NCBI GenBank assembly: GCA_964583985.1 | Contig: CAZOYD010000056.1 | Coordinates: 1-23,404 of the forward strand | Origin: an uncultured archaeon | GTDB lineage: Archaea; Asgardarchaeota; Lokiarchaeia; Sigyniarchaeales; SOKP01 | DNA length: 23,404 bases | Direction of reading: 5' to 3' | Shown: positions 9,088 to 23,404 of the stretch, one piece after another | How the letters are laid out: each line of letters opens with the position of its first letter | Position numbering within the stretch: the first letter of the stretch is position 1 | The notes under the pieces: model-generated | Database searches by the model: none | Told to the model about the DNA's origin: nothing | The model's input: the letters and a program-made list of their open reading frames with translations, nothing else | Program-made: the position numbers and the translations under genes

Positions 9088-10194
9088 TTATTCCTGAATA
9101 TTAGTCTTCTTTCTTCTTGCTTCTAATTTGTCTGCAAAATAAGAACTCAATCTTCCAAGTTGAACTTTAATTGAAAATAATCCTTTCCAATAATGATATA
9201 TAATTTTTAAAATAATTCCAAACAGTATAAAAGTAATTACAATTGCAAACCAAATGCTGATATAATCTAATTGTTTAAAAAAAAGAAAATATAATAAACT
9301 ATGCGTTAAATATACAGTGAAAGAATAATAAGAGAAATAAAACAGGAGTTTATAACTTTTTTTAATTTTATTGCCAATAAGAACCTCAAATATAAATAGC
9401 GTCATCAGTAATGTCATTTGAATTCCCAACGAGTAAACGCACCAAGATAGAGAACTCCTAAGCAAAAAATCAGGAAACTCTATAAAAAAACCAATAATAA
9501 TCAAGATAAAACCAACTATAAAATAATTTTTTAGAATACTTACTGTTTTCTTTCTACTTGGTCCAGTATCACTAAAATCTAATTTTGAAATTGAATTACC
9601 GATAACGGTTCCAAACAAAAAAAATGGGAAAAATGGTAAAATAGAATCAAGATCAGGTGTATTATACAACAAATAAGATAATAAACCAAGAACATTCATT
9701 TGTCCATAATAATTTATCAAGAAATTAAACAAATAATTATTTAAGATCCAAATAGAAAAACCTAAGATAATTCTGGTATATTTCGGTAATTTCAAAAGTG
9801 GCCATCCAATTAATAATGAGATTGATGCTGTTAAAAGAATAAACCATGACCAAATATAGTATAGATCATTTAAAGTTAAAGCTATAGATAAATTATAAAT
9901 TAATGCTATTATTAGTAAAAATAGAGCTCTTAAAAGATATGAATTTCTTACTCGAGTTTTTGTAAATTCACCTAAAACTTCTATACTATTTTTTCTCTTC
10001 TCGTAAGATATTGCAATACTCACACCTGAAACAAATAAAAAACCTGCAGCACCAACTGAGTCAAGAATTACATGAGTAAAATTATTTATATAAGCATATT
10101 CTGGTTTTATCCACCATTCTAATAAATGACCAAGGAACATCCAACCCATGCATATTCCACGAAATATATCAATGCTCTTATGCCTGACCATCAT
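9088..10194 (-). CDS. DUF1624/HGSNAT-like multi-pass membrane acyltransferase, paralog 2
   Basis: N-terminal SIDIFRGICMGWMFLGH, FLFVSGVS, LLRALFL, PFFPFFLFG and YYSFTVYLTH motifs; about 10 TM segments. Confidence 0.8.
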   Translation of the reverse strand: MMVRHKSIDIFRGICMGWMFLGHLLEWWIKPEYAYINNFTHVILDSVGAAGFLFVSGVSIAISYEKRKNSIEVLGEFTKTRVRNSYLLRALFLLIIALIYNLSIALTLNDLYYIWSWFILLTASISLLIGWPLLKLPKYTRIILGFSIWILNNYLFNFLINYYGQMNVLGLLSYLLYNTPDLDSILPFFPFFLFGTVIGNSISKLDFSDTGPSRKKTVSILKNYFIVGFILIIIGFFIEFPDFLLRSSLSWCVYSLGIQMTLLMTLFIFEVLIGNKIKKSYKLLFYFSYYSFTVYLTHSLLYFLFFKQLDYISIWFAIVITFILFGIILKIIYHYWKGLFSIKVQLGRLSSYFADKLEARRKKTNIQE

Positions 10195-10200
10195 TTTACC

Positions 10201-11274
10201 TTAACTTAATTTTTCTGCCAAGAATGTAGCAAATTTACTGACATAGAATTTTATTGAAGCGTATTTTCCAACCTTTATATATAGAAATCTGAATAAAAGG
10301 GTTATTAACACCATGATTGGTATTATATAAATCCATATCTCCACCGCATTGAATTGAGGTGGAAATACAAAATAGAGAAGTTGGTGGGCAAAAAAGATGG
10401 TAAATGAGTAAAATGAATAGTACTTGATAACCGAATAGTTTTTCTTAAATTTGAGCTTACCAAAATCCTTTATGAATACTAAAAATGAAATCAATAATAA
10501 TTGTAATCCAAAAGTATACATATGAGATGAAAAAGATTCTTTTAATACAAAATTAGGAAATTCAAAAAAAATGCCAAAAATTACTAAAATAATACCTCCA
10601 ATAAGTGATGGTTGGATCAATTTTTTTTGCAAATAATTTCGTTGTTCCTCTTTTCCATCTTTCAATGATGATTCATAAAATATATCTCCAATAACTGTTC
10701 CAGCAAGCAGAAATGGGAAATACCCCAATATAACATTTTGTTCAGGGACATTATATAGAAAATAATACAAATATCCAAGAAAATTTGGTTCACCTCGAAA
10801 TGGTGTTAACCATATGATAATAAATTCATTACTAATCCAAATAAAAAAGCAAGCGTAAATTCTAAATCGTTTTGAAGTCTTTAAAAAAGGCCAAGCAATT
10901 ATCAATGATACTGAGATAGTTTGTATTACAAACCATGTCCATACTCCAGGAATATTGGAATATAAGGTTCCAACTAGATTCCATACAGTAGAGATCAAAA
11001 AAATAAGTAACGCACGAAACATGTATTCATTTCTGATCAGTTTTTCATTTGAATCGTGAAATGATTGGTATTGTTGTCTCCTTTTCCTATAAGAAAGAGA
11101 AGCACTCATTCCTGAAACCAATAAAAAGCCACCACCACCTACAAATGCTCCAAAATTCCAAATTATTTCATAAAGCCAGTAATCGGGTTTTATAACCCAC
11201 CAATTAACAAAATGACCAAATGTCATGTAAAAGATACAAAGTCCACGAAAAATATCTAATGCTTGTACTCTCAT
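10201..11274 (-). CDS. DUF1624/HGSNAT-like multi-pass membrane acyltransferase, paralog 1
   Basis: ALDIFRGLCIFYMTFGH, FLLVSGMS, MFRALLI, YFPFLLAG, FYSFTIFFAH; collinear with the neighbouring paralog. Confidence 0.8.
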   Translation of the reverse strand: MRVQALDIFRGLCIFYMTFGHFVNWWVIKPDYWLYEIIWNFGAFVGGGGFLLVSGMSASLSYRKRRQQYQSFHDSNEKLIRNEYMFRALLIFLISTVWNLVGTLYSNIPGVWTWFVIQTISVSLIIAWPFLKTSKRFRIYACFFIWISNEFIIIWLTPFRGEPNFLGYLYYFLYNVPEQNVILGYFPFLLAGTVIGDIFYESSLKDGKEEQRNYLQKKLIQPSLIGGIILVIFGIFFEFPNFVLKESFSSHMYTFGLQLLLISFLVFIKDFGKLKFKKNYSVIKYYSFYSFTIFFAHQLLYFVFPPQFNAVEIWIYIIPIMVLITLLFRFLYIKVGKYASIKFYVSKFATFLAEKLS

Positions 11275-11337: not shown

Positions 11338-12180
11338 TTACTCAAAATTATTTAAATTTTGTATCATTTTAATTGACTCTGATAATGATTTTTCGCCCGA
11401 TATTACTTCTTCTGCAATATTGGAAAATTCAACACGATATTCTTTAGAATACCCTTCAATATTTCTCGAAAATTGTTCTATTTTCAATAAATTCGTCTTA
11501 AATATGGTATTATAATTTTGATAATTAACATCCAATCCATCTCTGAAAGATAATATTAATGCAGCTGCTTCATGTTTCGGAAATTTTTTCCCTTGGTTCG
11601 CAATCTTAATTTTAGACGTGTTTGATTCATCAATTAATTGTACTCTCATCTCAGTAGTTTTTGAAAATGTTGAAAAAACGCGACTTATTAGATCTAGTGT
11701 AATTTCTAAGAGCCCCCTTCCGAATTTAATTTCTATGCTTAATGGATTTGTATTTTTTTGCCGAAGAGAATCAAATATTTTTGTGATATAGCCAATAACT
11801 TGTGAATTATCAGTTACAGTATTTGAATCTAAGAAATGATCATCTAAAAACGCAACAATTCCTATATGATTTAGTCCTGGATCAATTGAAAACAACAATT
11901 TATCATAATATTGATAACCCAGTTTATTAATTGCTAGAACCTTTATGATGTATTGATTGATGTCATCGCCATCGACAAATTCTAAGAGATTAATATCCTT
12001 ATTAGCGATATCAATTTTGCTCGATTCTTTCGAAGTTGTCAGTATAACTGAAGAGATGTTCGGGAGTTTGTCCCAAAATGATAAAATTCTAAACTGAATT
12101 CTTTTCTCCTTTAGACCTTTATTTATCTTGTAGAAAAAATTTAAGTTCTCTGTTAATATATAAATAGGTTTGAGTCTCAA
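11338..12180 (-). CDS. Conserved archaeal protein with YqgF/RuvC-like RNase H-fold domain
   Basis: FSIDPGLNHIGIVAF (strand-1 Asp), IKFGRG, LIDESNTS (cf. YqgF DERxT/S) and HEAAALIL motifs. TTG start. Confidence 0.65.
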   Translation of the reverse strand: MRLKPIYILTENLNFFYKINKGLKEKRIQFRILSFWDKLPNISSVILTTSKESSKIDIANKDINLLEFVDGDDINQYIIKVLAINKLGYQYYDKLLFSIDPGLNHIGIVAFLDDHFLDSNTVTDNSQVIGYITKIFDSLRQKNTNPLSIEIKFGRGLLEITLDLISRVFSTFSKTTEMRVQLIDESNTSKIKIANQGKKFPKHEAAALILSFRDGLDVNYQNYNTIFKTNLLKIEQFSRNIEGYSKEYRVEFSNIAEEVISGEKSLSESIKMIQNLNNFE

Positions 12181-12223: not shown

Positions 12224-12907
12224 ATGAAATTTCCACTCGACCAATTCAATGAAGAAATAGGTCTTGAAGAAATTGTGTCAGTTTGGGGTGAGATGGGAGT
12301 AGGAAAAACCACATTTGCACTTCAAATCGCATTTAATAACATTCAAGTTGGTGGTAGTGTTTATTATTTTTATAGTAAACCAAAATTACCCTTGGAAAAG
12401 ATTAATTTACTCCTTTCAACCTTGGATTCTAACGTAATAAAGAATCTTAAAACCATTAAATTGAAAGATTTCAATGATTTATACCGAATTGTATTAGATT
12501 TAGAAATTAATATCCGAAAAGATAAAAAAGAAAACAAGAAATATCCAAACCTAGTAATCATTGATTCTCTCACCGATCTTTATAGAATAGAGTTATATAG
12601 GGATAAAAAAGATAAAAATGTAATTTTGAATTATAAGTTGAATCATATATTAGGTACTTTGACCCATATAAATCATAATTTTGCAGTGGATATTCTAATT
12701 ATCAATGAAATGAGCTATATTCATTTTGAAGATCATTCTCATGAAGTTCAAAGTGGTGGAAAAGTAATGAGTTATTGGGTACCCTGTTCTATAAAAATAG
12801 CTAGAAGTGAGATGCTGAATAAGCGTAGATTTTATCTTTATAAAAATTCTCAAATTCAATCCGAATTACTAGTCATGTTATCTGAAAAAGGTTTTCAAAA
12901 CCTTTAA
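12224..12907 (+). CDS. RadB-like RecA-superfamily ATPase
   Basis: Walker A GEMGVGKT, Walker B LVIIDSLTDLYR, LIINE, SGGKVMSYW and C-terminal LSEKGF. ATPase core only, 227 aa. Confidence 0.8.
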   Translation: MKFPLDQFNEEIGLEEIVSVWGEMGVGKTTFALQIAFNNIQVGGSVYYFYSKPKLPLEKINLLLSTLDSNVIKNLKTIKLKDFNDLYRIVLDLEINIRKDKKENKKYPNLVIIDSLTDLYRIELYRDKKDKNVILNYKLNHILGTLTHINHNFAVDILIINEMSYIHFEDHSHEVQSGGKVMSYWVPCSIKIARSEMLNKRRFYLYKNSQIQSELLVMLSEKGFQNL

Positions 12908-15918: not shown

Positions 15919-16530
15919 TCAAGGAGCGGTACTATCTTCTAATTCATCCATCTTAAATTTATAGACATCACCTGAAAGAGAGGTATATATCCACTCCGTA
16001 AGCCAAGGGCATCTTGTTGGATTAAATTGATCTAAATTTGTATCATTACATTTACCTGAAAAAGGACAAATTAAGCACGGTTGAAACGAGAAAAAATCTA
16101 AAATGAAATCTTTTTTAGTTGCATCAATTTTTTTCTCTTCAACATTTACTCCAAGGGTCTCTATGATTGTGACTATTTTTGTCCATGATGCCTCTACCAT
16201 TTCTCGTTTGGTAATAATCTTGGATTGGAGAGTCAAGAGTTCTAATATATCATCAAGCTCGCTACGTGTCATATCAGATAATTCAAGTAATTCTTCAAAA
16301 TACATGCTATTTTTCTTTTGAATTATTTCTAATACAAATTTTTCATCTTTTTTCAAATGACGCGTTGAATCTTTCTTCTTTTCCTCAATTCGTTCTATTC
16401 TTCTCTCTAATTGAGATTTATCAGGTTCTTCTGGACCTTCTACTCTTTCCTTTACCTTACATTTATGGCGATTAAGGTAAGCAAAAGAATTTCCGCAATA
16501 AGGACATACTTCCTTTTTCTTTTTTGCCAT
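15919..16530 (-). CDS. RPC34/C39 (Pol III subunit) / TFE-beta-like protein: N-terminal CxxC-HxC zinc knuckle, winged helix, C-terminal four-Cys Fe-S motif
   Basis: C-terminal PCLICPFSGKC-x-FNPTRCPWLTEWI matches the PCxxCP...C...PxxCxxxxEW motif of RPC34/TFE-beta. The central segment is wHTH-like (FVLEIIQKKNSMYFEELLELSDMTRSELDDILELLTLQSKIITKR). Confidence 0.75.
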   Translation of the reverse strand: MAKKKKEVCPYCGNSFAYLNRHKCKVKERVEGPEEPDKSQLERRIERIEEKKKDSTRHLKKDEKFVLEIIQKKNSMYFEELLELSDMTRSELDDILELLTLQSKIITKREMVEASWTKIVTIIETLGVNVEEKKIDATKKDFILDFFSFQPCLICPFSGKCNDTNLDQFNPTRCPWLTEWIYTSLSGDVYKFKMDELEDSTAP

Positions 16531-18938: not shown

Positions 18939-19448
18939 TTATTTTAATTTTTCGGAAATCATATATTGTAAAGCAGTATAAGAGATTAAAATTAAAATTA
19001 TCCCGATAGAAAGAATTCTAACAGCAATCTTTTTATTATATACGTGTTTGGAGGCTTGATATAAGAAGACAAAACCCAAAGAACACAAGAATATGAAAAT
19101 AGAAGCAACAATTGATTCTACTATGAATGCATCGTGAATTGAAGGATATAGAAATATTGCATTGCCTTGGGAATCTCCTCCCAATGCTGGAGGTTTTGTA
19201 TATATAAGATATACTATTCCCGTTTGAAGGAGAAATAAAATTGCATATATTAATATTACTGCTATTGATTTACTCGGTAATGGCATATCCATTTTTGGAA
19301 GTAAGGACTCAGGGAATCTAATTTTTGGCTTTCTCAAAGACTTTCCGAAAATCCAAGGTGTTTTACTCCTTACTCGTTCAAAAACGGTCTCTGATCCGCT
19401 AATATCTTCCTTTTTTATTTTAGCTTGTGCTTGGACTTGTTTTTCCAT
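18939..19448 (-). CDS. Oligosaccharyltransferase accessory subunit OSTC/DC2-like (OST3/OST6 TM family)
   Basis: Three TM helices. The pattern PKI..P...LPS...FLLQTGIVY....PPALG...FLY...FIVESIVAS.FIFLCSLGFVFL...KL parallels eukaryotic OSTC (PNL..P..MPS...FLITGGIIY..EPPSVG...FL...YIMEGLASSFLF.MGGLGFIIL...KL), recalled from memory. Confidence 0.8.
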   Translation of the reverse strand: MEKQVQAQAKIKKEDISGSETVFERVRSKTPWIFGKSLRKPKIRFPESLLPKMDMPLPSKSIAVILIYAILFLLQTGIVYLIYTKPPALGGDSQGNAIFLYPSIHDAFIVESIVASIFIFLCSLGFVFLYQASKHVYNKKIAVRILSIGIILILISYTALQYMISEKLK

Positions 19449-19537: not shown

Positions 19538-21058
19538 TCATTGTAATTTCTGTATTAAAGTTAACAAAAATTTCCATATTTTTTCACTAGATTGTATTTT
19601 CAATCGTTCATCAGGAGAATGTCCTCCTATTATATCGGGGCCAATTGAAATCATTTGCATGTCGGGGTAATATTTCGAGAAATAAGCACATTCCAAACCA
19701 GCATGAATGGCCTTAATACTTACTTCTTGTTTAAACAATTCTGTATATATTTCTCTCGCGTTAGAGGTTAATTTTGAACTAAAATCTGGATCCCAGCTAG
19801 GATAATCCGTTATTATTGTTAAATCCATGTTAAAATTAAAAGCTTTAAGTAAGGTGATTATCTTCTCATAAATTACCCCCTTACTATATTCAGCCAAACT
19901 TCGAGTACTTATTTTGACTTTAATAGAATTTGGTTTTGTTTTAATAACAGCGAAATTATCGGAAGTATGTACTAATTCTGGAATTGTTGGATGCATGGAT
20001 AAAGGGCCATTAGGCATTAAGTAGAATAGATCAAGCAATTTATCTTTAAAATTATTCGCAAAAACGAGATGGTCCAAATTTTCTTGGTATTCTTCACAGG
20101 TAATCTTCAAATTCGGATCAATCCCCTTATATAGTGATTTTATATTAGACGTATAGAATTCAATTTGTTCCGAGATATCCCTAATTTCTTCTTTATTAAC
20201 ATAAAAAATCGCATTTGCTTCTCGAGGAATTGCATTTGATAAATTTCCTCCATTTATAGTCGATAAATAAATTTTAAACTCTTCATTTAACTTCCATAGA
20301 ATCTCTGCTAGAATTTTATTTGCATTACCTCTCCTCTTATTGATATCTGTTCCAGAATGCCCACCTACTAAACCCATTACATCCAATTTCATTGGTGTAA
20401 TTTGATTTTTTATCTTTTCAATTGATATGCGTTCTTCTTTGATCTCAACCTTGAATACTCGCCCTCCAGCACAACCAATGGTAAATTCGTTATCTCTCTC
20501 AGAATCGAGGTTTATTAAATACTTGCCCTTGATGATATTCAAATCCATCTGGGAAGCTCCTGAAAGCCCTCTTTCTTCATCAACAGTAAATAATAAATCT
20601 AAATGGCATGACCCAAGATTTAATTCTCCATTATAAATTTTCTTCATGATTGCCAATTGATAAGCCATGCCAACAGCATTGTCTGCCCCAAGTGTCGTGC
20701 CATCTGCGGTCATCCACTTTTCATTGTTAACATCAATTACCTTTAATCTTAATGGATCTTTTGCGAAATCATGTTTAGTCTCATCATTTTTCTCACATAC
20801 CATGTCCATGTGGCTTTGCAAAACTATTCTTAATGGTTCACTTCCAGTTCTTGTCTGAGGGGGAACTCTGACAACTATATTACCAATCTGATCTATTTGA
20901 TGCTCAAATCTAAACTTAACGGCTTCTTCTTTAATAAAGGTTCTAATCAGCCCTTCTTTTTTGGAACATCGGGGTATTTTGGAAATTTGAAAAAAATAAT
21001 CCCAAAATTCTTGTGGTTCACCTAAACTCTTTAAATTCTCCATTTTAATCGCATCCAT
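19538..21058 (-). CDS. pepD: Aminoacyl-histidine (Xaa-His) dipeptidase PepD, M20C
   Basis: IPRCSKKE, LQSHMDMVCEK, TTLGADNAVG, LFTVDEERG, INLDSE, GGHSG, NAIPRE, IHAGLEC and HSPDE motifs. Confidence 0.93.
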   Translation of the reverse strand: MDAIKMENLKSLGEPQEFWDYFFQISKIPRCSKKEGLIRTFIKEEAVKFRFEHQIDQIGNIVVRVPPQTRTGSEPLRIVLQSHMDMVCEKNDETKHDFAKDPLRLKVIDVNNEKWMTADGTTLGADNAVGMAYQLAIMKKIYNGELNLGSCHLDLLFTVDEERGLSGASQMDLNIIKGKYLINLDSERDNEFTIGCAGGRVFKVEIKEERISIEKIKNQITPMKLDVMGLVGGHSGTDINKRRGNANKILAEILWKLNEEFKIYLSTINGGNLSNAIPREANAIFYVNKEEIRDISEQIEFYTSNIKSLYKGIDPNLKITCEEYQENLDHLVFANNFKDKLLDLFYLMPNGPLSMHPTIPELVHTSDNFAVIKTKPNSIKVKISTRSLAEYSKGVIYEKIITLLKAFNFNMDLTIITDYPSWDPDFSSKLTSNAREIYTELFKQEVSIKAIHAGLECAYFSKYYPDMQMISIGPDIIGGHSPDERLKIQSSEKIWKFLLTLIQKLQ

Positions 21059-21140
21059 GAAAATATAAATATGAATTATGTTTTATTACTTATAAAAATA
21101 GCATTAAATTACTTAAATTTCAAATATAAGCGATTTTAAA

Positions 21141-22265
21141 ATGAGCAGCTGGAAAGATTTATACTCGGAAGTCAAAAAACGTAAGATGGAAGCACTGGAT
21201 AAAAAAGAAGTAGTTAAAGCAGTTGAGAAATATGGAAAAATACTTGCGGTCAAAGGTCGATATGAAAAACCCGAGAAAGTTGTTGATCACATGTACGCCG
21301 CTAAACATGATACCATTAAACCTCAAGATATTATGAAATATAATCTAAATGATTATGATGTGGTACTTATTGGGTGTCCTGGAGATGAGATCCCTCATTC
21401 TGCATTTCCAAAGATAAGTGAGTACGTCAATTTAAATGGGGGATGGATACTAACAACCGATTGGGCGATAAAGCATATTGTCGAAATCATTTTTCCGGGA
21501 TTCATTCGATGGAATGGTGATAAAACAGCAGATGCAGTGGTAAGTTGTCAAATTCTTGAACCTAATCATCCTTTTCTTGAAGGTGTCCTTACAGAAATCC
21601 AACAAGATAAATGGCATGCAAAAACAACTACGGATACAAAGAAATCCGAGTTTCGGTGGTGGTTAGAAAATCGTAGTTTTCCAATTCAAGTTCTGAACCC
21701 AACAGCAGTCAAGGTTCTAATTGAATCATGGGAAATAAAAAAGAAATGGGGAGAATCTCCAGTTTTGTGTTATTTTGATTATGGAAAAACGGGCGGTCGT
21801 ATTATTCATTTAATATCTCACACGCATTTGCAAAAAGGAGGTCAAAAAGGGAAATACGCCTCAGCATTAATTTTAACAAATATCCTTGACGAAAAAGTCT
21901 CCAAGAAAATGGGTTTATCAAAAAAGCCCGCTTCAGGGTATGTCTCAAATTGGGAAGAAACTCCTGCTCAATCGTATGCCGATCCAAATAGTCCGTGGCA
22001 AACTCCTGATGAACAAAGTCAATTTGTAACTCCTTCTGTTTCAGAATTTGGATTAACTGGTACAGCTCAAATTATTGAAGTTGATGCTAATAGCACTAGT
22101 TTTTCATACGCAAGCAAATGTGCTTATTGTAACTATGATTTTGCAGATTATTCCGGGAAAGTCTATAAATGCCAAGCTTGTGGCACGCATTATCATGAAA
22201 ATTGCTTGAATAACCAAATTAACGAGGGAATATGTAAGAACTGTGGAAAAATTCTCCTTTGGTAG
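21141..22265 (+). CDS. Hypothetical protein: class I GATase-like alpha/beta domain, S/P/Q/T-rich linker and C-terminal C4HC3 RING/PHD-type zinc finger
   Basis: N-terminal domain LNDYDVVLIGCPG...ISEYVNLNGGWILTTDWA...GGRIIHLISH; C-terminus CAYC-x13-CQAC-x4-H-x2-C-x9-CKNC. Confidence 0.7.
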   Translation: MSSWKDLYSEVKKRKMEALDKKEVVKAVEKYGKILAVKGRYEKPEKVVDHMYAAKHDTIKPQDIMKYNLNDYDVVLIGCPGDEIPHSAFPKISEYVNLNGGWILTTDWAIKHIVEIIFPGFIRWNGDKTADAVVSCQILEPNHPFLEGVLTEIQQDKWHAKTTTDTKKSEFRWWLENRSFPIQVLNPTAVKVLIESWEIKKKWGESPVLCYFDYGKTGGRIIHLISHTHLQKGGQKGKYASALILTNILDEKVSKKMGLSKKPASGYVSNWEETPAQSYADPNSPWQTPDEQSQFVTPSVSEFGLTGTAQIIEVDANSTSFSYASKCAYCNYDFADYSGKVYKCQACGTHYHENCLNNQINEGICKNCGKILLW

Positions 22266-22368: not shown

Positions 22369-23404
22369 ATGAATATAAGTAAAGAGCGCGTTTTTGACGA
22401 AGTTGAGAGGTTAGATCGGAATTATATAATGGATATCATGAGTAATCTTATTAATATTGATACTACCGTTCCACCTGCTAATTCCTATCGAGAATATGTT
22501 GACGCTTTAACTCCATTTTTTCAAGATTTAGGTTATGATTTGGAAGAAATTATTGTCCCCCAAGAATTAATACAACAAATTCCTTATCCCCTTGAAGGCC
22601 CAAGAATTAACTTAATTGCAACTAAAGATTTTGGACAAAACCAATTCATAACTTTTTACGGTCACATGGATGTTGTTCCAGCTCCAAATGAAGGGCAAAA
22701 TAAATGGCGCTTTCCTCCATTTAAAGCCACGATGATTAAAAGTGGGAAGATCTATGGTCGTGGGACGTCTGATATGAAAGGTGCAATGGTTTGCTTGATA
22801 ATCGCATTCCAATTAATTAAAAAATTAAACTTAACACCTAAATATAATATTAGAGTTTTGAATTGTACTGATGAAGAAATCGGGATCTGGCCAGGTGTAA
22901 GATATTTAGCCGAAAAAGGATACGTTAAAGGAACCGTTTTTTGCATGGAAGGAGTCATCAACCCCATAATTGTTCAAGGAACTGCGGGTGCATTAAATGT
23001 CATTGTGGAATCTATAGGAAGGAGTTGCCATTCTGGTACTAATTTTATGGGAGTTAATGCATTTGAAGAAACAATTCCAATCTTGAATGAATTAATGAAA
23101 CTAAAAAGGATGGTAGAAGTTCGAGAAAGCAAGAATATTCCCGGTTTACCACGTTTTGGTACGGGAGAAAAAAGAAACATGACACCTATGTTTAATTTAG
23201 ACATCATCCATTCTGGTACCAAAACTAATATTGTCCCTGATCTTTGTACTCTGACCATTAATAGGCGTCTTATTCCAGATGAAGACATTGAAGAAGTTAA
23301 AAAAGAAATAGCAGATGCTGTTGAACGTGGACGAATTCAGAGTAAATTGTTAGATGTCAAGACAAAATACATCTATGATTATCCTCCAATGACAGCTGAT
23401 CCAA
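22369..23404 (+). CDS. ArgE/DapE-family M20 metallohydrolase, 3'-truncated (not in the ORF track)
   Basis: Translated by hand from ATG 22369: MNISKERVF...LINIDTTVPP...FYGHMDVVPA...W.FPPF...IYGRGTSDMKGA...CTDEEIG...GRSCHSG...GVNA...GTKTNIVPD...NRRLIPDE. The frame is open to the window end. Confidence 0.92.
   Translation, partial: MNISKERVFDEVERLDRNYIMDIMSNLINIDTTVPPANSYREYVDALTPFFQDLGYDLEEIIVPQELIQQIPYPLEGPRINLIATKDFGQNQFITFYGHMDVVPAPNEGQNKWRFPPFKATMIKSGKIYGRGTSDMKGAMVCLIIAFQLIKKLNLTPKYNIRVLNCTDEEIGIWPGVRYLAEKGYVKGTVFCMEGVINPIIVQGTAGALNVIVESIGRSCHSGTNFMGVNAFEETIPILNELMKLKRMVEVRESKNIPGLPRFGTGEKRNMTPMFNLDIIHSGTKTNIVPDLCTLTINRRLIPDEDIEEVKKEIADAVERGRIQSKLLDVKTKYIYDYPPMTADP

Follow-up and report, generated by a model that had tools for sequence, protein, structure and literature searches.

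The window analysed here is a stretch of 23,404 nucleotides from an uncultured archaeon of the Asgard lineage Lokiarchaeia (NCBI GenBank assembly GCA_964583985.1, contig CAZOYD010000056.1, positions 1 to 23,404 of the forward strand). Close to its end, the open reading frame (ORF) list and the translation place a complete gene of 374 codons plus a stop codon (21141..22265, + strand), the product of which joins a domain of the class I glutamine amidotransferase (GATase) fold to a C-terminal zinc finger of the C4HC3 type, the two being connected by a disordered linker. The gene lies between two genes for M20 peptidases, one of which is pepD, and an earlier note on this DNA had given the ORF, the finger coordinates and the pepD and M20 flanks accurately, as judged from the ORF list, the translation and family searches. 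In the sections below we describe the protein and its modules, its relatives and its genomic setting, and weigh the explanations of what it may do.

Gene and overall architecture

The 374-residue protein is real and under selection, with conservation far beyond chance: its full-length homologues form more than 235 clusters at 62-91% identity, those that carry a name come nearly all from Promethearchaeota/Lokiarchaeia-type metagenome-assembled genomes (MAGs), and the protein is as conserved as its neighbouring genes, or more so. The start, M-S-(S)-W-K-D-L-Y, is kept among the aligned homologues, and the N-terminal pair of helices to which it belongs (residues 1-31, 21141..21233, + strand; helices 4-17 and 22-31 in the model) is almost invariant in the orthologues, the invariant columns including those from K5 to K21. 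The full-length structure used here is an AlphaFold2 model built on the family alignment, with a mean predicted local distance difference test (pLDDT) score of 74, and neither a signal peptide nor a membrane segment was apparent in the protein. No description of an architecture combining the GATase fold with such a finger was found in the literature, in agreement with the supposition of the earlier note that the fusion had not been characterised, and the architecture is thus a conserved, previously undescribed combination of known kinds of module.

The N-terminal GATase-fold domain

The alpha/beta domain that follows the helix pair (residues ~30-258, 21228..21914, + strand) is a class I GATase-like domain of the ThuA/STM3548-like kind, as proposed in outline by the earlier note and borne out by comparison of the model with known structures by both Foldseek and VIA-align. 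The leading VIA-align matches to model residues 30-256 are the ThuA-like structures 1t0b (Z 15.7) and 4jqs (Z 15.3), followed by STM3548 (2gk3, Z 14.8), and the next rank, at Z 12.6-14.1, is occupied by true glutaminases, the GH42 middle domain (GH42M), IFT52 and OST48/Wbp1, all across residues ~30-257. Among the glutaminases superposing over this range are PdxT (2abw, Z 14.1) and PurQ (3d54, Z 13.7), as well as HisH and PabA, and GH42 (5xb7) and IFT52 (5fms) both reach Z 13.4. With Foldseek, too, class I GATase-like folds were recovered, and at the head of its list stood STM3548, the GH42 middle domain, ThuA-like proteins and the N-domain of IFT52. A specific relation to OST48/Wbp1, considered since a gene of the OST3 family lies nearby, was set aside, the matches (Z 12.6-13.0) being tied with those of many other GATase-fold structures and the target having no apparent signal peptide or membrane segment.

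With 1t0b, 4jqs and 2gk3 the domain shares the three-layer alpha/beta/alpha fold over ~190-200 residues at Z 14.8-15.7 and a root-mean-square deviation (rmsd) of 2.7-3.0, and neither they nor the target have the glutaminase Cys at the nucleophile elbow; the target differs from them, however, in its own set of Cys79, Asp107, Glu176, His223 and His227, in matching none of the Pfam models for ThuA, GH42M and GATase, and in the addition of the N-terminal helical pair and the C-terminal finger. At the level of sequence the domain matched no Pfam or NCBIfam model, PF00117 giving no match at E <= 1 and ThuA, GH42M (PF06283, PF08532) and related Pfam models none above cut-off in the target. Sub-threshold matches were confined to relatives (Glyco_hydro_42M at 22.5 bits against a cut-off of 25.8 in relative P0132, and one ThuA match at E 2.6e-5), a family-profile search of the PDB sequences yielded GH42M, IFT52 and ThuA-like matches at sub-significant values alone (E 0.015-1.4), and the ESM Atlas contributed unnamed bacterial clusters only, one of them auto-named 'beta-galactosidase trimerisation domain'.

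The family to which the domain belongs is large, with 606 cluster representatives at E <= 1e-3 and 324 at E <= 1e-10 in an exhaustive HMMER search. Across 117 representatives at 28-65% identity, a set of mostly polar residues is near-invariant: Cys79 (98%), Thr106 (97%), Asp107 (98%), Trp108 (96%), Glu176 (89%), Ser196 (94%), Gly219 (100%), His223 (97%) and His227 (98%), to which Trp173, Trp174 and Ser179 can be added. Three short motifs hold much of this set, namely G-C-P-G with Cys79 (residues 78-81, 21372..21383, + strand), which follows strand beta3 (74-77) in the model; T-T-D-W (residues 105-108, 21453..21464, + strand), at the elbow between the strand 102-105 and the helix 107-117; and H-x3-H-x-H (residues 223-229, 21807..21827, + strand), at the end of and just past the strand 219-224. 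In the GATase fold the active-site crevice is usually formed by loops along the C-terminal edge of the sheet. The conserved residues directly follow the model strands 74-77, 102-105 and 219-224, and, to judge from the topology of the predicted model, the polar ones would sit in loops of this active-site type.

The domain is not a glutaminase, because Asp replaces the nucleophile Cys. Asp107 occupies the elbow position, where no Cys of a G-x-C-x-G motif is found; the catalytic His-x-Glu is likewise missing, the position two past the conserved His227 being His or Tyr and not Glu. Assignment as a class I glutamine amidotransferase was accordingly rejected: the fold fits, and the nucleophile Cys, the His-x-Glu and a PF00117 match are all absent. 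An hhalign comparison with a genuine GATase of the same genome was non-significant (probability 0.3%) and serves as a check of topological consistency only; in its register, equally non-significant, D107 falls opposite the Cys of G-I-C-Y-G and G-C-P-G opposite S-G-G-P. What the Cys/Asp/Glu/His-x3-His set suggests is chemistry that depends on a thiol or a metal, or else the specific binding of a ligand. A hydrolase of the thiol- or metal-dependent kind, or a module that binds a small ligand, is the most likely identity of the domain; a metal-dependent amidase site in ThuA-like folds has a precedent, which is to be read as a precedent only (PMC7686228).

Elsewhere in prokaryotes the domain occurs in fusions of other kinds. 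Among 94 representatives, the partners are FHA (15), HEAT (8) and SH3 (5) domains and, more rarely, zf-RING_2 (3), PBZ (2), a Ser/Thr kinase (1) and GGACT (1). Most of these partners serve in signalling or in the binding of proteins; P0168, P0203, P0169, P0208 and P0141 are examples of such fused relatives. PADLOC holds no model for the domain, its matches being confined to the fused kinase and HEAT parts.

The linker

Between the two folded modules runs a disordered linker rich in Gln, Pro, Ser and Thr (residues ~259-304, 21915..22052, + strand), recognised from its composition (Gln 17%, Pro 13%, Ser 12%, Thr 9%) and from the pLDDT of the AlphaFold2 model, which falls below 50 for residues 262-305. 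Its length varies from 32 to 75 residues among orthologues. The earlier note had drawn attention to repeated W-x-T-P elements, which are indeed present in the target; in the general form W-x-x-[ST]-P, however, they recur in only 6 of 121 orthologues, and what is conserved is a Y-V-S-x-W motif (114/121) and a single [YF]-x-T-P (105/121), so that the TP motifs are conserved in part only.

The C-terminal finger

The finger is part of an extended module (residues 305-374, 22053..22262, + strand; pLDDT 90.3) that consists of an N-terminal strand, a C4HC3 cross-brace and a C-terminal I-L-L-W strand. From the alignments, with positions obtained by arithmetic, the eight zinc ligands are C327, C330, C344, C347, H352, C355, C365 and C368 (22119..22244, + strand), in the pattern C-x2-C-x13-C-x2-C-x4-H-x2-C-x9-C-x2-C. 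All eight, together with the I-L-L-W terminus, are invariant in a 25-sequence alignment, and among 121 orthologue representatives the C4HC3 order is kept in 120 and the loop lengths of 13 and 9 in 119. Two distant fusion relatives, P0123 and P0209, carry another residue in place of Cys at the second position of the first ligand pair (C-A-L-G and C-P-A-G), which could mean that one of the zinc sites has degenerated in some lineages.

When residues 305-374 were folded alone, on an 18-sequence alignment, the model comprised an N-terminal strand (308-313), two short strands and a helix in a RING-like arrangement, and the C-terminal I-L-L strand. Foldseek places at the top RING domains whose structures were solved with E2s, namely those of RNF12, RNF38, RNF165, RNF4 and TRAF6 (template modelling score 0.56-0.62, probability 0.9-0.99, E 0.06-0.5), with C1 domains next. 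VIA-align, the ranking of which is independent of Foldseek, places the C-terminal RING-like finger of the TFIIH subunit p44/Ssl1 first (Z 6.1-6.8), ahead of RNF12, HRD1, ZNRF1, RNF165 and RNF38 (Z 5.5-5.8) and of C1 domains (Z 4.4-4.6). The model superposes on RING domains across 55-62 residues at an rmsd of 2.3-3.1, and its structural neighbours are almost exclusively cross-brace domains of the RING, U-box and C1 kinds. The finger is thus confidently predicted to be a RING-type cross-brace and not a pair of tandem ribbons, in keeping with the expectation of the earlier note, for which a zinc ribbon without the cross-brace would have been damaging. The family-level assignment of the modelled finger is soft, because all Z-scores lie below 8.

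The profile scores are similarly distributed over several families. As an isolated module the finger reaches 27.8 bits with C1_1 (cut-off 26.5), 21.1 with PHD (24) and 18.1 with Prok-RING_1 (29.1), and the full-length protein scores 21.7 bits with C1_1, 14.1 with Prok-RING_1 (PF14446) and 11.9 with zf-RING_2 (cut-off 27.3). C1_1 matched 18 of 18 family fingers, PHD 17 (below threshold) and, at E <= 0.01, Prok-RING_1 16, while a profile of the 25-sequence alignment found weak C1, PHD and RING matches alone among the PDB sequences (E > 0.1). Some orthologues are named 'PHD finger domain-containing protein' at NCBI, and some of the more distant relatives are closer to the canonical RING, with a finger that reaches 29.6 bits on zf-RING_2 or terminates in C-P-x-C-[KR].

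Paralogy with Ssl1/p44-like proteins

The closest connection of the finger within the genome is to two further proteins of ~392 residues, each with a von Willebrand factor A (vWA) domain, one encoded on genome contig 4 (L002:502-1683, + strand) and the other on genome contig 59 (L003:1483-2661, - strand). Their vWA domains score 33.5 and 42.7 bits, respectively, with Ssl1 (PF04056), both above the Pfam cut-off of 27 bits, and the target finger aligns with their C-terminal fingers, at E 1.1e-6 for the first protein (40% identity over 64 residues) and E 1.9e-6 for the second. An Ssl1-like vWA domain followed by two C4HC3-type fingers is the layout of the p44/Ssl1 subunit of TFIIH. One finger of the vWA paralogues passes both Prok-RING_1 and zf-RING_2, and that of the contig 4 protein scores 34.4-35.7 bits on PF14446. 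Matching fingers within reading frames of ~390-410 residues occur in most genomes of the window's family. No separate partner resembling Tfb4/p34 was found in the genome, the sole match being the vWA protein itself, below cut-off.

Because it is paralogous to the fingers of the vWA proteins, the target finger can be regarded as a prokaryotic RING that has been shuffled within the lineage, the C4HC3 arrangement being typical of that assemblage (review PMC11354881). With PF14446 and the p44/Ssl1 finger it has in common the binuclear C4HC3 cross-brace, the paralogy and, for p44/Ssl1, the top structural match. It differs from them in scoring 14-18 bits against a PF14446 cut-off of 29.1 bits, in possessing an extra clasping strand and the invariant I-L-L-W C-terminus, and, compared with p44/Ssl1, in standing behind a GATase-fold domain instead of a vWA domain.

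Phyletic range

In a survey of 300 genomes sampled across the phylum, the protein was matched in 66 of the 67 sampled genomes of the window's family, a few of them by the finger or a fragment only, and the full-length fusion was found outside this family in one genus of a sister family only, with 54% identity. In eight other Asgard families the N-domain stands alone, at 33-42% identity across residues ~13-238; these relatives lack the finger, a check that the earlier note had proposed for non-Asgard homologues. These N-domain-only homologues are 290-335 residues long and, in place of a finger, carry a conserved helix, G-E-[VA]-E-S-A-Y...E-Q-[QK]-K, followed by a Lys-rich basic tail. Such homologues (L098-L111) come from the other Asgard families and, as second copies, from within the window's family; no second copy of this kind was among the matches in the window's own genome. 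The contig DATKTW010000178.1 (L089), which bears the label 'Candidatus Nanopelagicaceae bacterium', encodes a 75%-identical orthologue together with the full Asgard synteny block (pepD, OST3, gcvH); it is probably of Asgard origin and was binned by mistake with a bacterial MAG.

Gene neighbourhood

The gene is divergent from that of a PepD-type M20 dipeptidase (19538..21058, - strand; TIGR01893, 504 bits), from which it is separated by an AT-rich spacer of 82 bp (21059..21140) with TATA-like boxes conserved in a nine-locus alignment. These boxes may be promoters, and the spacer fits two independent promoters placed back to back. On the other side follows the truncated ORF of an ArgE/DapE-family M20 deacylase (22369..23403, + strand; TIGR01910, 215.1 bits against a cut-off of 217.6), which runs off the end of the window; both M20 genes are treated here as neighbours only. 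Among 80 related loci of the window's family, pepD adjoins the gene in 77 and the DapE gene follows it in 33, and upstream stand OST3 (77/80), gcvH (75/80) and two further genes (71/80 and 68/80); the upstream block of OST3, gcvH, an MptE-like and a RadA-like gene is thus collinear in 68-77 of 80. The MptE-like and RadA-like genes, with FtsJ, Trm1 and FBPase, are unrelated housekeeping genes. None of pepD, DapE and OST3 adjoins the sister-family orthologue, and the N-domain homologues of other Asgard families share no gene neighbours.

The earlier note had suggested a link to peptide turnover from the flanking M20 genes. This link is not supported, the synteny amounting to block collinearity: the whole upstream block is equally collinear, DapE follows in only 33 of the 80 loci, and no M20 gene lies near the sister-family orthologue, so that the adjacency of the M20 genes reflects collinearity of the block, not functional coupling.

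Other genes of the window may be mentioned in passing. The OST3/OST6-family membrane protein (18939-19448, - strand; PF04756, 39.1 bits) is a eukaryote-type oligosaccharyltransferase subunit, two tandem HGSNAT/acyltransferase_3-type membrane acyltransferases are encoded at 9088-11274 (- strand), and three ORFs of 203-280 codons, at 15919-16530 (- strand), 12224-12907 (+ strand) and 11338-12180 (- strand), gave no Pfam match at E <= 1e-4.

The ubiquitin system of the genome

The genome carries a complete ubiquitin operon on contig 29 (19363-25838, corresponding to L097:5364-11839), as the earlier note had anticipated for an Asgard archaeon. The operon contains two ubiquitin-like genes and genes for a ubiquitin-like membrane protein, a winged helix-turn-helix-like protein, an E1-like protein (L097 8032-9267), an E2 (L097 9326-9853) and a JAMM/MPN protein, and it also encodes a multi-pass membrane protein that ends in a RING-like finger with a helix Trp retained; a ubiquitin-like protein lies at L097 7618-7953. 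An E2 turned up in 118 of 120 genomes of the order, fusion-free lineages among them; since it is nearly universal, its co-occurrence with the fusion is non-discriminating.

An archaeal cascade of E1, E2 and RING has been reconstituted by Hennell James et al., in which the activity of the RING protein srfp needs an Ile between ligands 1 and 2, a Trp in the helix and a linchpin Arg (PMC5654768). Using the reference residues of that study, we counted the E2-contact positions in 120 orthologues of the target. The Ile position holds Tyr (114), Phe (5) or Leu (1) and is thus acceptable; the Trp position, however, is Gln in 119 of 120, the Pro position after ligand 7 is Lys in all 120, and the linchpin position, one past the last Cys, is Gly, Asn, Ser, Asp or Glu, with a basic residue one further on (Arg 95, Lys 23). 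In comparison with RING E3s (RNF12, RNF38, RNF165 and srfp of C. subterraneum), the target finger shares the fold, the eight-ligand cross-brace and the hydrophobic residue between ligands 1 and 2, and departs from them in being C4HC3, where theirs are C3H2C3 or C3HC4, and in having Gln, Lys and Gly/Asn/Ser where theirs have Trp, Pro and the linchpin Arg or Lys, the basic residue of the target coming one position later.

Interpretation and competing explanations

The explanation that we favour, at a probability of about one half, is that of a cytosolic two-module protein in which a GATase-fold module, enzyme-like or ligand-binding, is combined with a protein-docking finger. The first module, the ThuA/STM3548-like domain, would be catalytic or would sense a ligand through its conserved polar set; the second, a RING-superfamily finger of 70 residues clasped by its N-terminal strand and the I-L-L-W strand, would sit on the flexible linker and dock a partner protein or complex, tethering the activity or the ligand sensing of the N-domain there. 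Ubiquitin-charged E2 would be one candidate for the docking partner, and not the favoured one. What the analysis establishes is to which class each fold belongs, how conserved and how widely distributed the protein is, the paralogy of its finger, and that the sister family has lost the adjacency to M20 genes; that the N-domain catalyses a reaction or binds a ligand, that the finger docks, and what its partner would be, we infer. Several points weigh against this explanation: the closest structural relatives of the N-domain, such as the GH42 middle domain, the GIFT domain of IFT52 and STM3548, are mostly non-catalytic; the clustering of the conserved residues is deduced from the topology of a predicted model; the finger's Z-scores, below 8, fall in the range in which small domains match by common arrangement; and no conserved neighbouring genes hint at a function.

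The strongest of the competing explanations is that of a genuine RING E3, in which the finger would bind the ubiquitin-charged E2 of the genome and the N-domain would recruit the substrate or be the regulated target. It draws on the RING-like cross-brace of the model and its best Foldseek matches, solved in complex with E2s; on the C4HC3 arrangement typical of prokaryotic RINGs (PMC11354881); on the complete operon of ubiquitin-like, E1, E2 and JAMM genes, with E2 in nearly all genomes of the order; on the aromatic or hydrophobic residue at the Ile position and the basic residue two past the last Cys; on distant relatives in which the finger scores above the zf-RING_2 cut-off or closes with C-P-x-C-[KR]; and on the reconstituted archaeal cascade (PMC5654768). 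Against this, three of the four canonical E2-contact positions, which matter in srfp, are replaced in essentially all orthologues, the zf-RING_2 score of 11.9 bits stands below its cut-off of 27.3, the operon already supplies a membrane-anchored RING-like protein of its own, and E2 also occurs in lineages without the fusion. Canonical E3 activity of the finger is consequently possible and not favoured, and of the E3-like adaptor put forward by the earlier note there remain the cross-brace finger and the ubiquitin system, the E2-contact residues being mostly replaced.

We regard as rather unlikely a non-catalytic scaffold or adaptor, in which the N-domain would be a platform for binding proteins or sugars like GH42M, the GIFT domain of IFT52 and OST48. 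The nearest folds do include the non-catalytic STM3548, GH42M, IFT52 and OST48/Wbp1 (Z 12.6-14.8), the echoes at the level of sequence are limited to sub-significant GH42M, IFT52 and ThuA-like matches, and the GATase nucleophile is absent; yet a Cys, an Asp, a Glu and two His that stay near-invariant across 28-65% identity would be unusual for a scaffold and imply chemistry or the specific binding of a ligand or metal. Unlikely, in our estimation, is a bifunctional, Asgard-specific enzyme of the ubiquitin system, with a RING of divergent interface acting on E2 or ubiquitin-like proteins and a Cys/His-dependent or metal-dependent amidase or isopeptidase on the GATase fold. 'Hydrolase-RING fusion', the other term of the earlier note, is a reasonable description of the architecture, in which the hydrolase activity of the N-domain is putative.

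Quite improbable is a finger that reads lysine-rich tails of Asgard histones in the manner of PHD domains, or that binds lipid or membrane in the manner of C1 domains. K-rich tails have been reported for Lokiarchaeal histones (bioRxiv 10.1101/2021.11.30.470311), and the finger has the C4HC3 order of PHD and C1 fingers with spacings of x13, x2, x4 and x2, the C-x2-C and x4-H spacing being PHD-like; the NCBI names, the C1_1 score of the isolated module (27.8 against 26.5) and the sub-threshold PHD matches of 17 of 18 fingers point the same way. The PHD score of 21.1 bits nevertheless remains below the cut-off of 24, and the hallmark PHD Trp, two before the seventh ligand, is Gly in 120 of 120 orthologues. 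The C1 set (H-x12-C...C-x7-C), for its part, has a His ligand upstream and closes with one Cys alone, where the target has no conserved His before C327 and its last ligands form a C-x2-C pair, and it is RING and p44 fingers that lead the structural neighbours, C1 domains following at Z 4.4-4.6. Very improbable, finally, and already largely refuted, is a functional coupling of the protein to the flanking M20 peptidases that would link tagging to peptide turnover: the divergent pepD gene, adjacent in 77 of 80 loci across a conserved 82-bp spacer, speaks for it, whereas divergent genes form no operon, the upstream block is just as collinear (68-77/80), DapE follows in only 33 of 80 loci, and the sister-family orthologue and the N-domain homologues elsewhere lack such neighbours.

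Significance

Almost every genome sampled from one Lokiarchaeia-type family has the protein, and its RING-superfamily finger has been shuffled between two scaffolds, one vWA-based and Ssl1/p44-like and the other of the GATase fold. If the finger is not an E3, it would be a caution against reading every C4HC3 finger of Asgard archaea as a ubiquitin ligase. The residue set of the N-domain, together with its repeated fusions to phospho-signalling and protein-binding modules, makes this domain a tractable target for the discovery of a new activity; should the bifunctional enzyme of the ubiquitin system turn out to be the correct explanation, it would define a new family of enzymes that act in regulation across prokaryotes and are built on the same domain that bacteria join to FHA, kinase, PBZ and HEAT modules.

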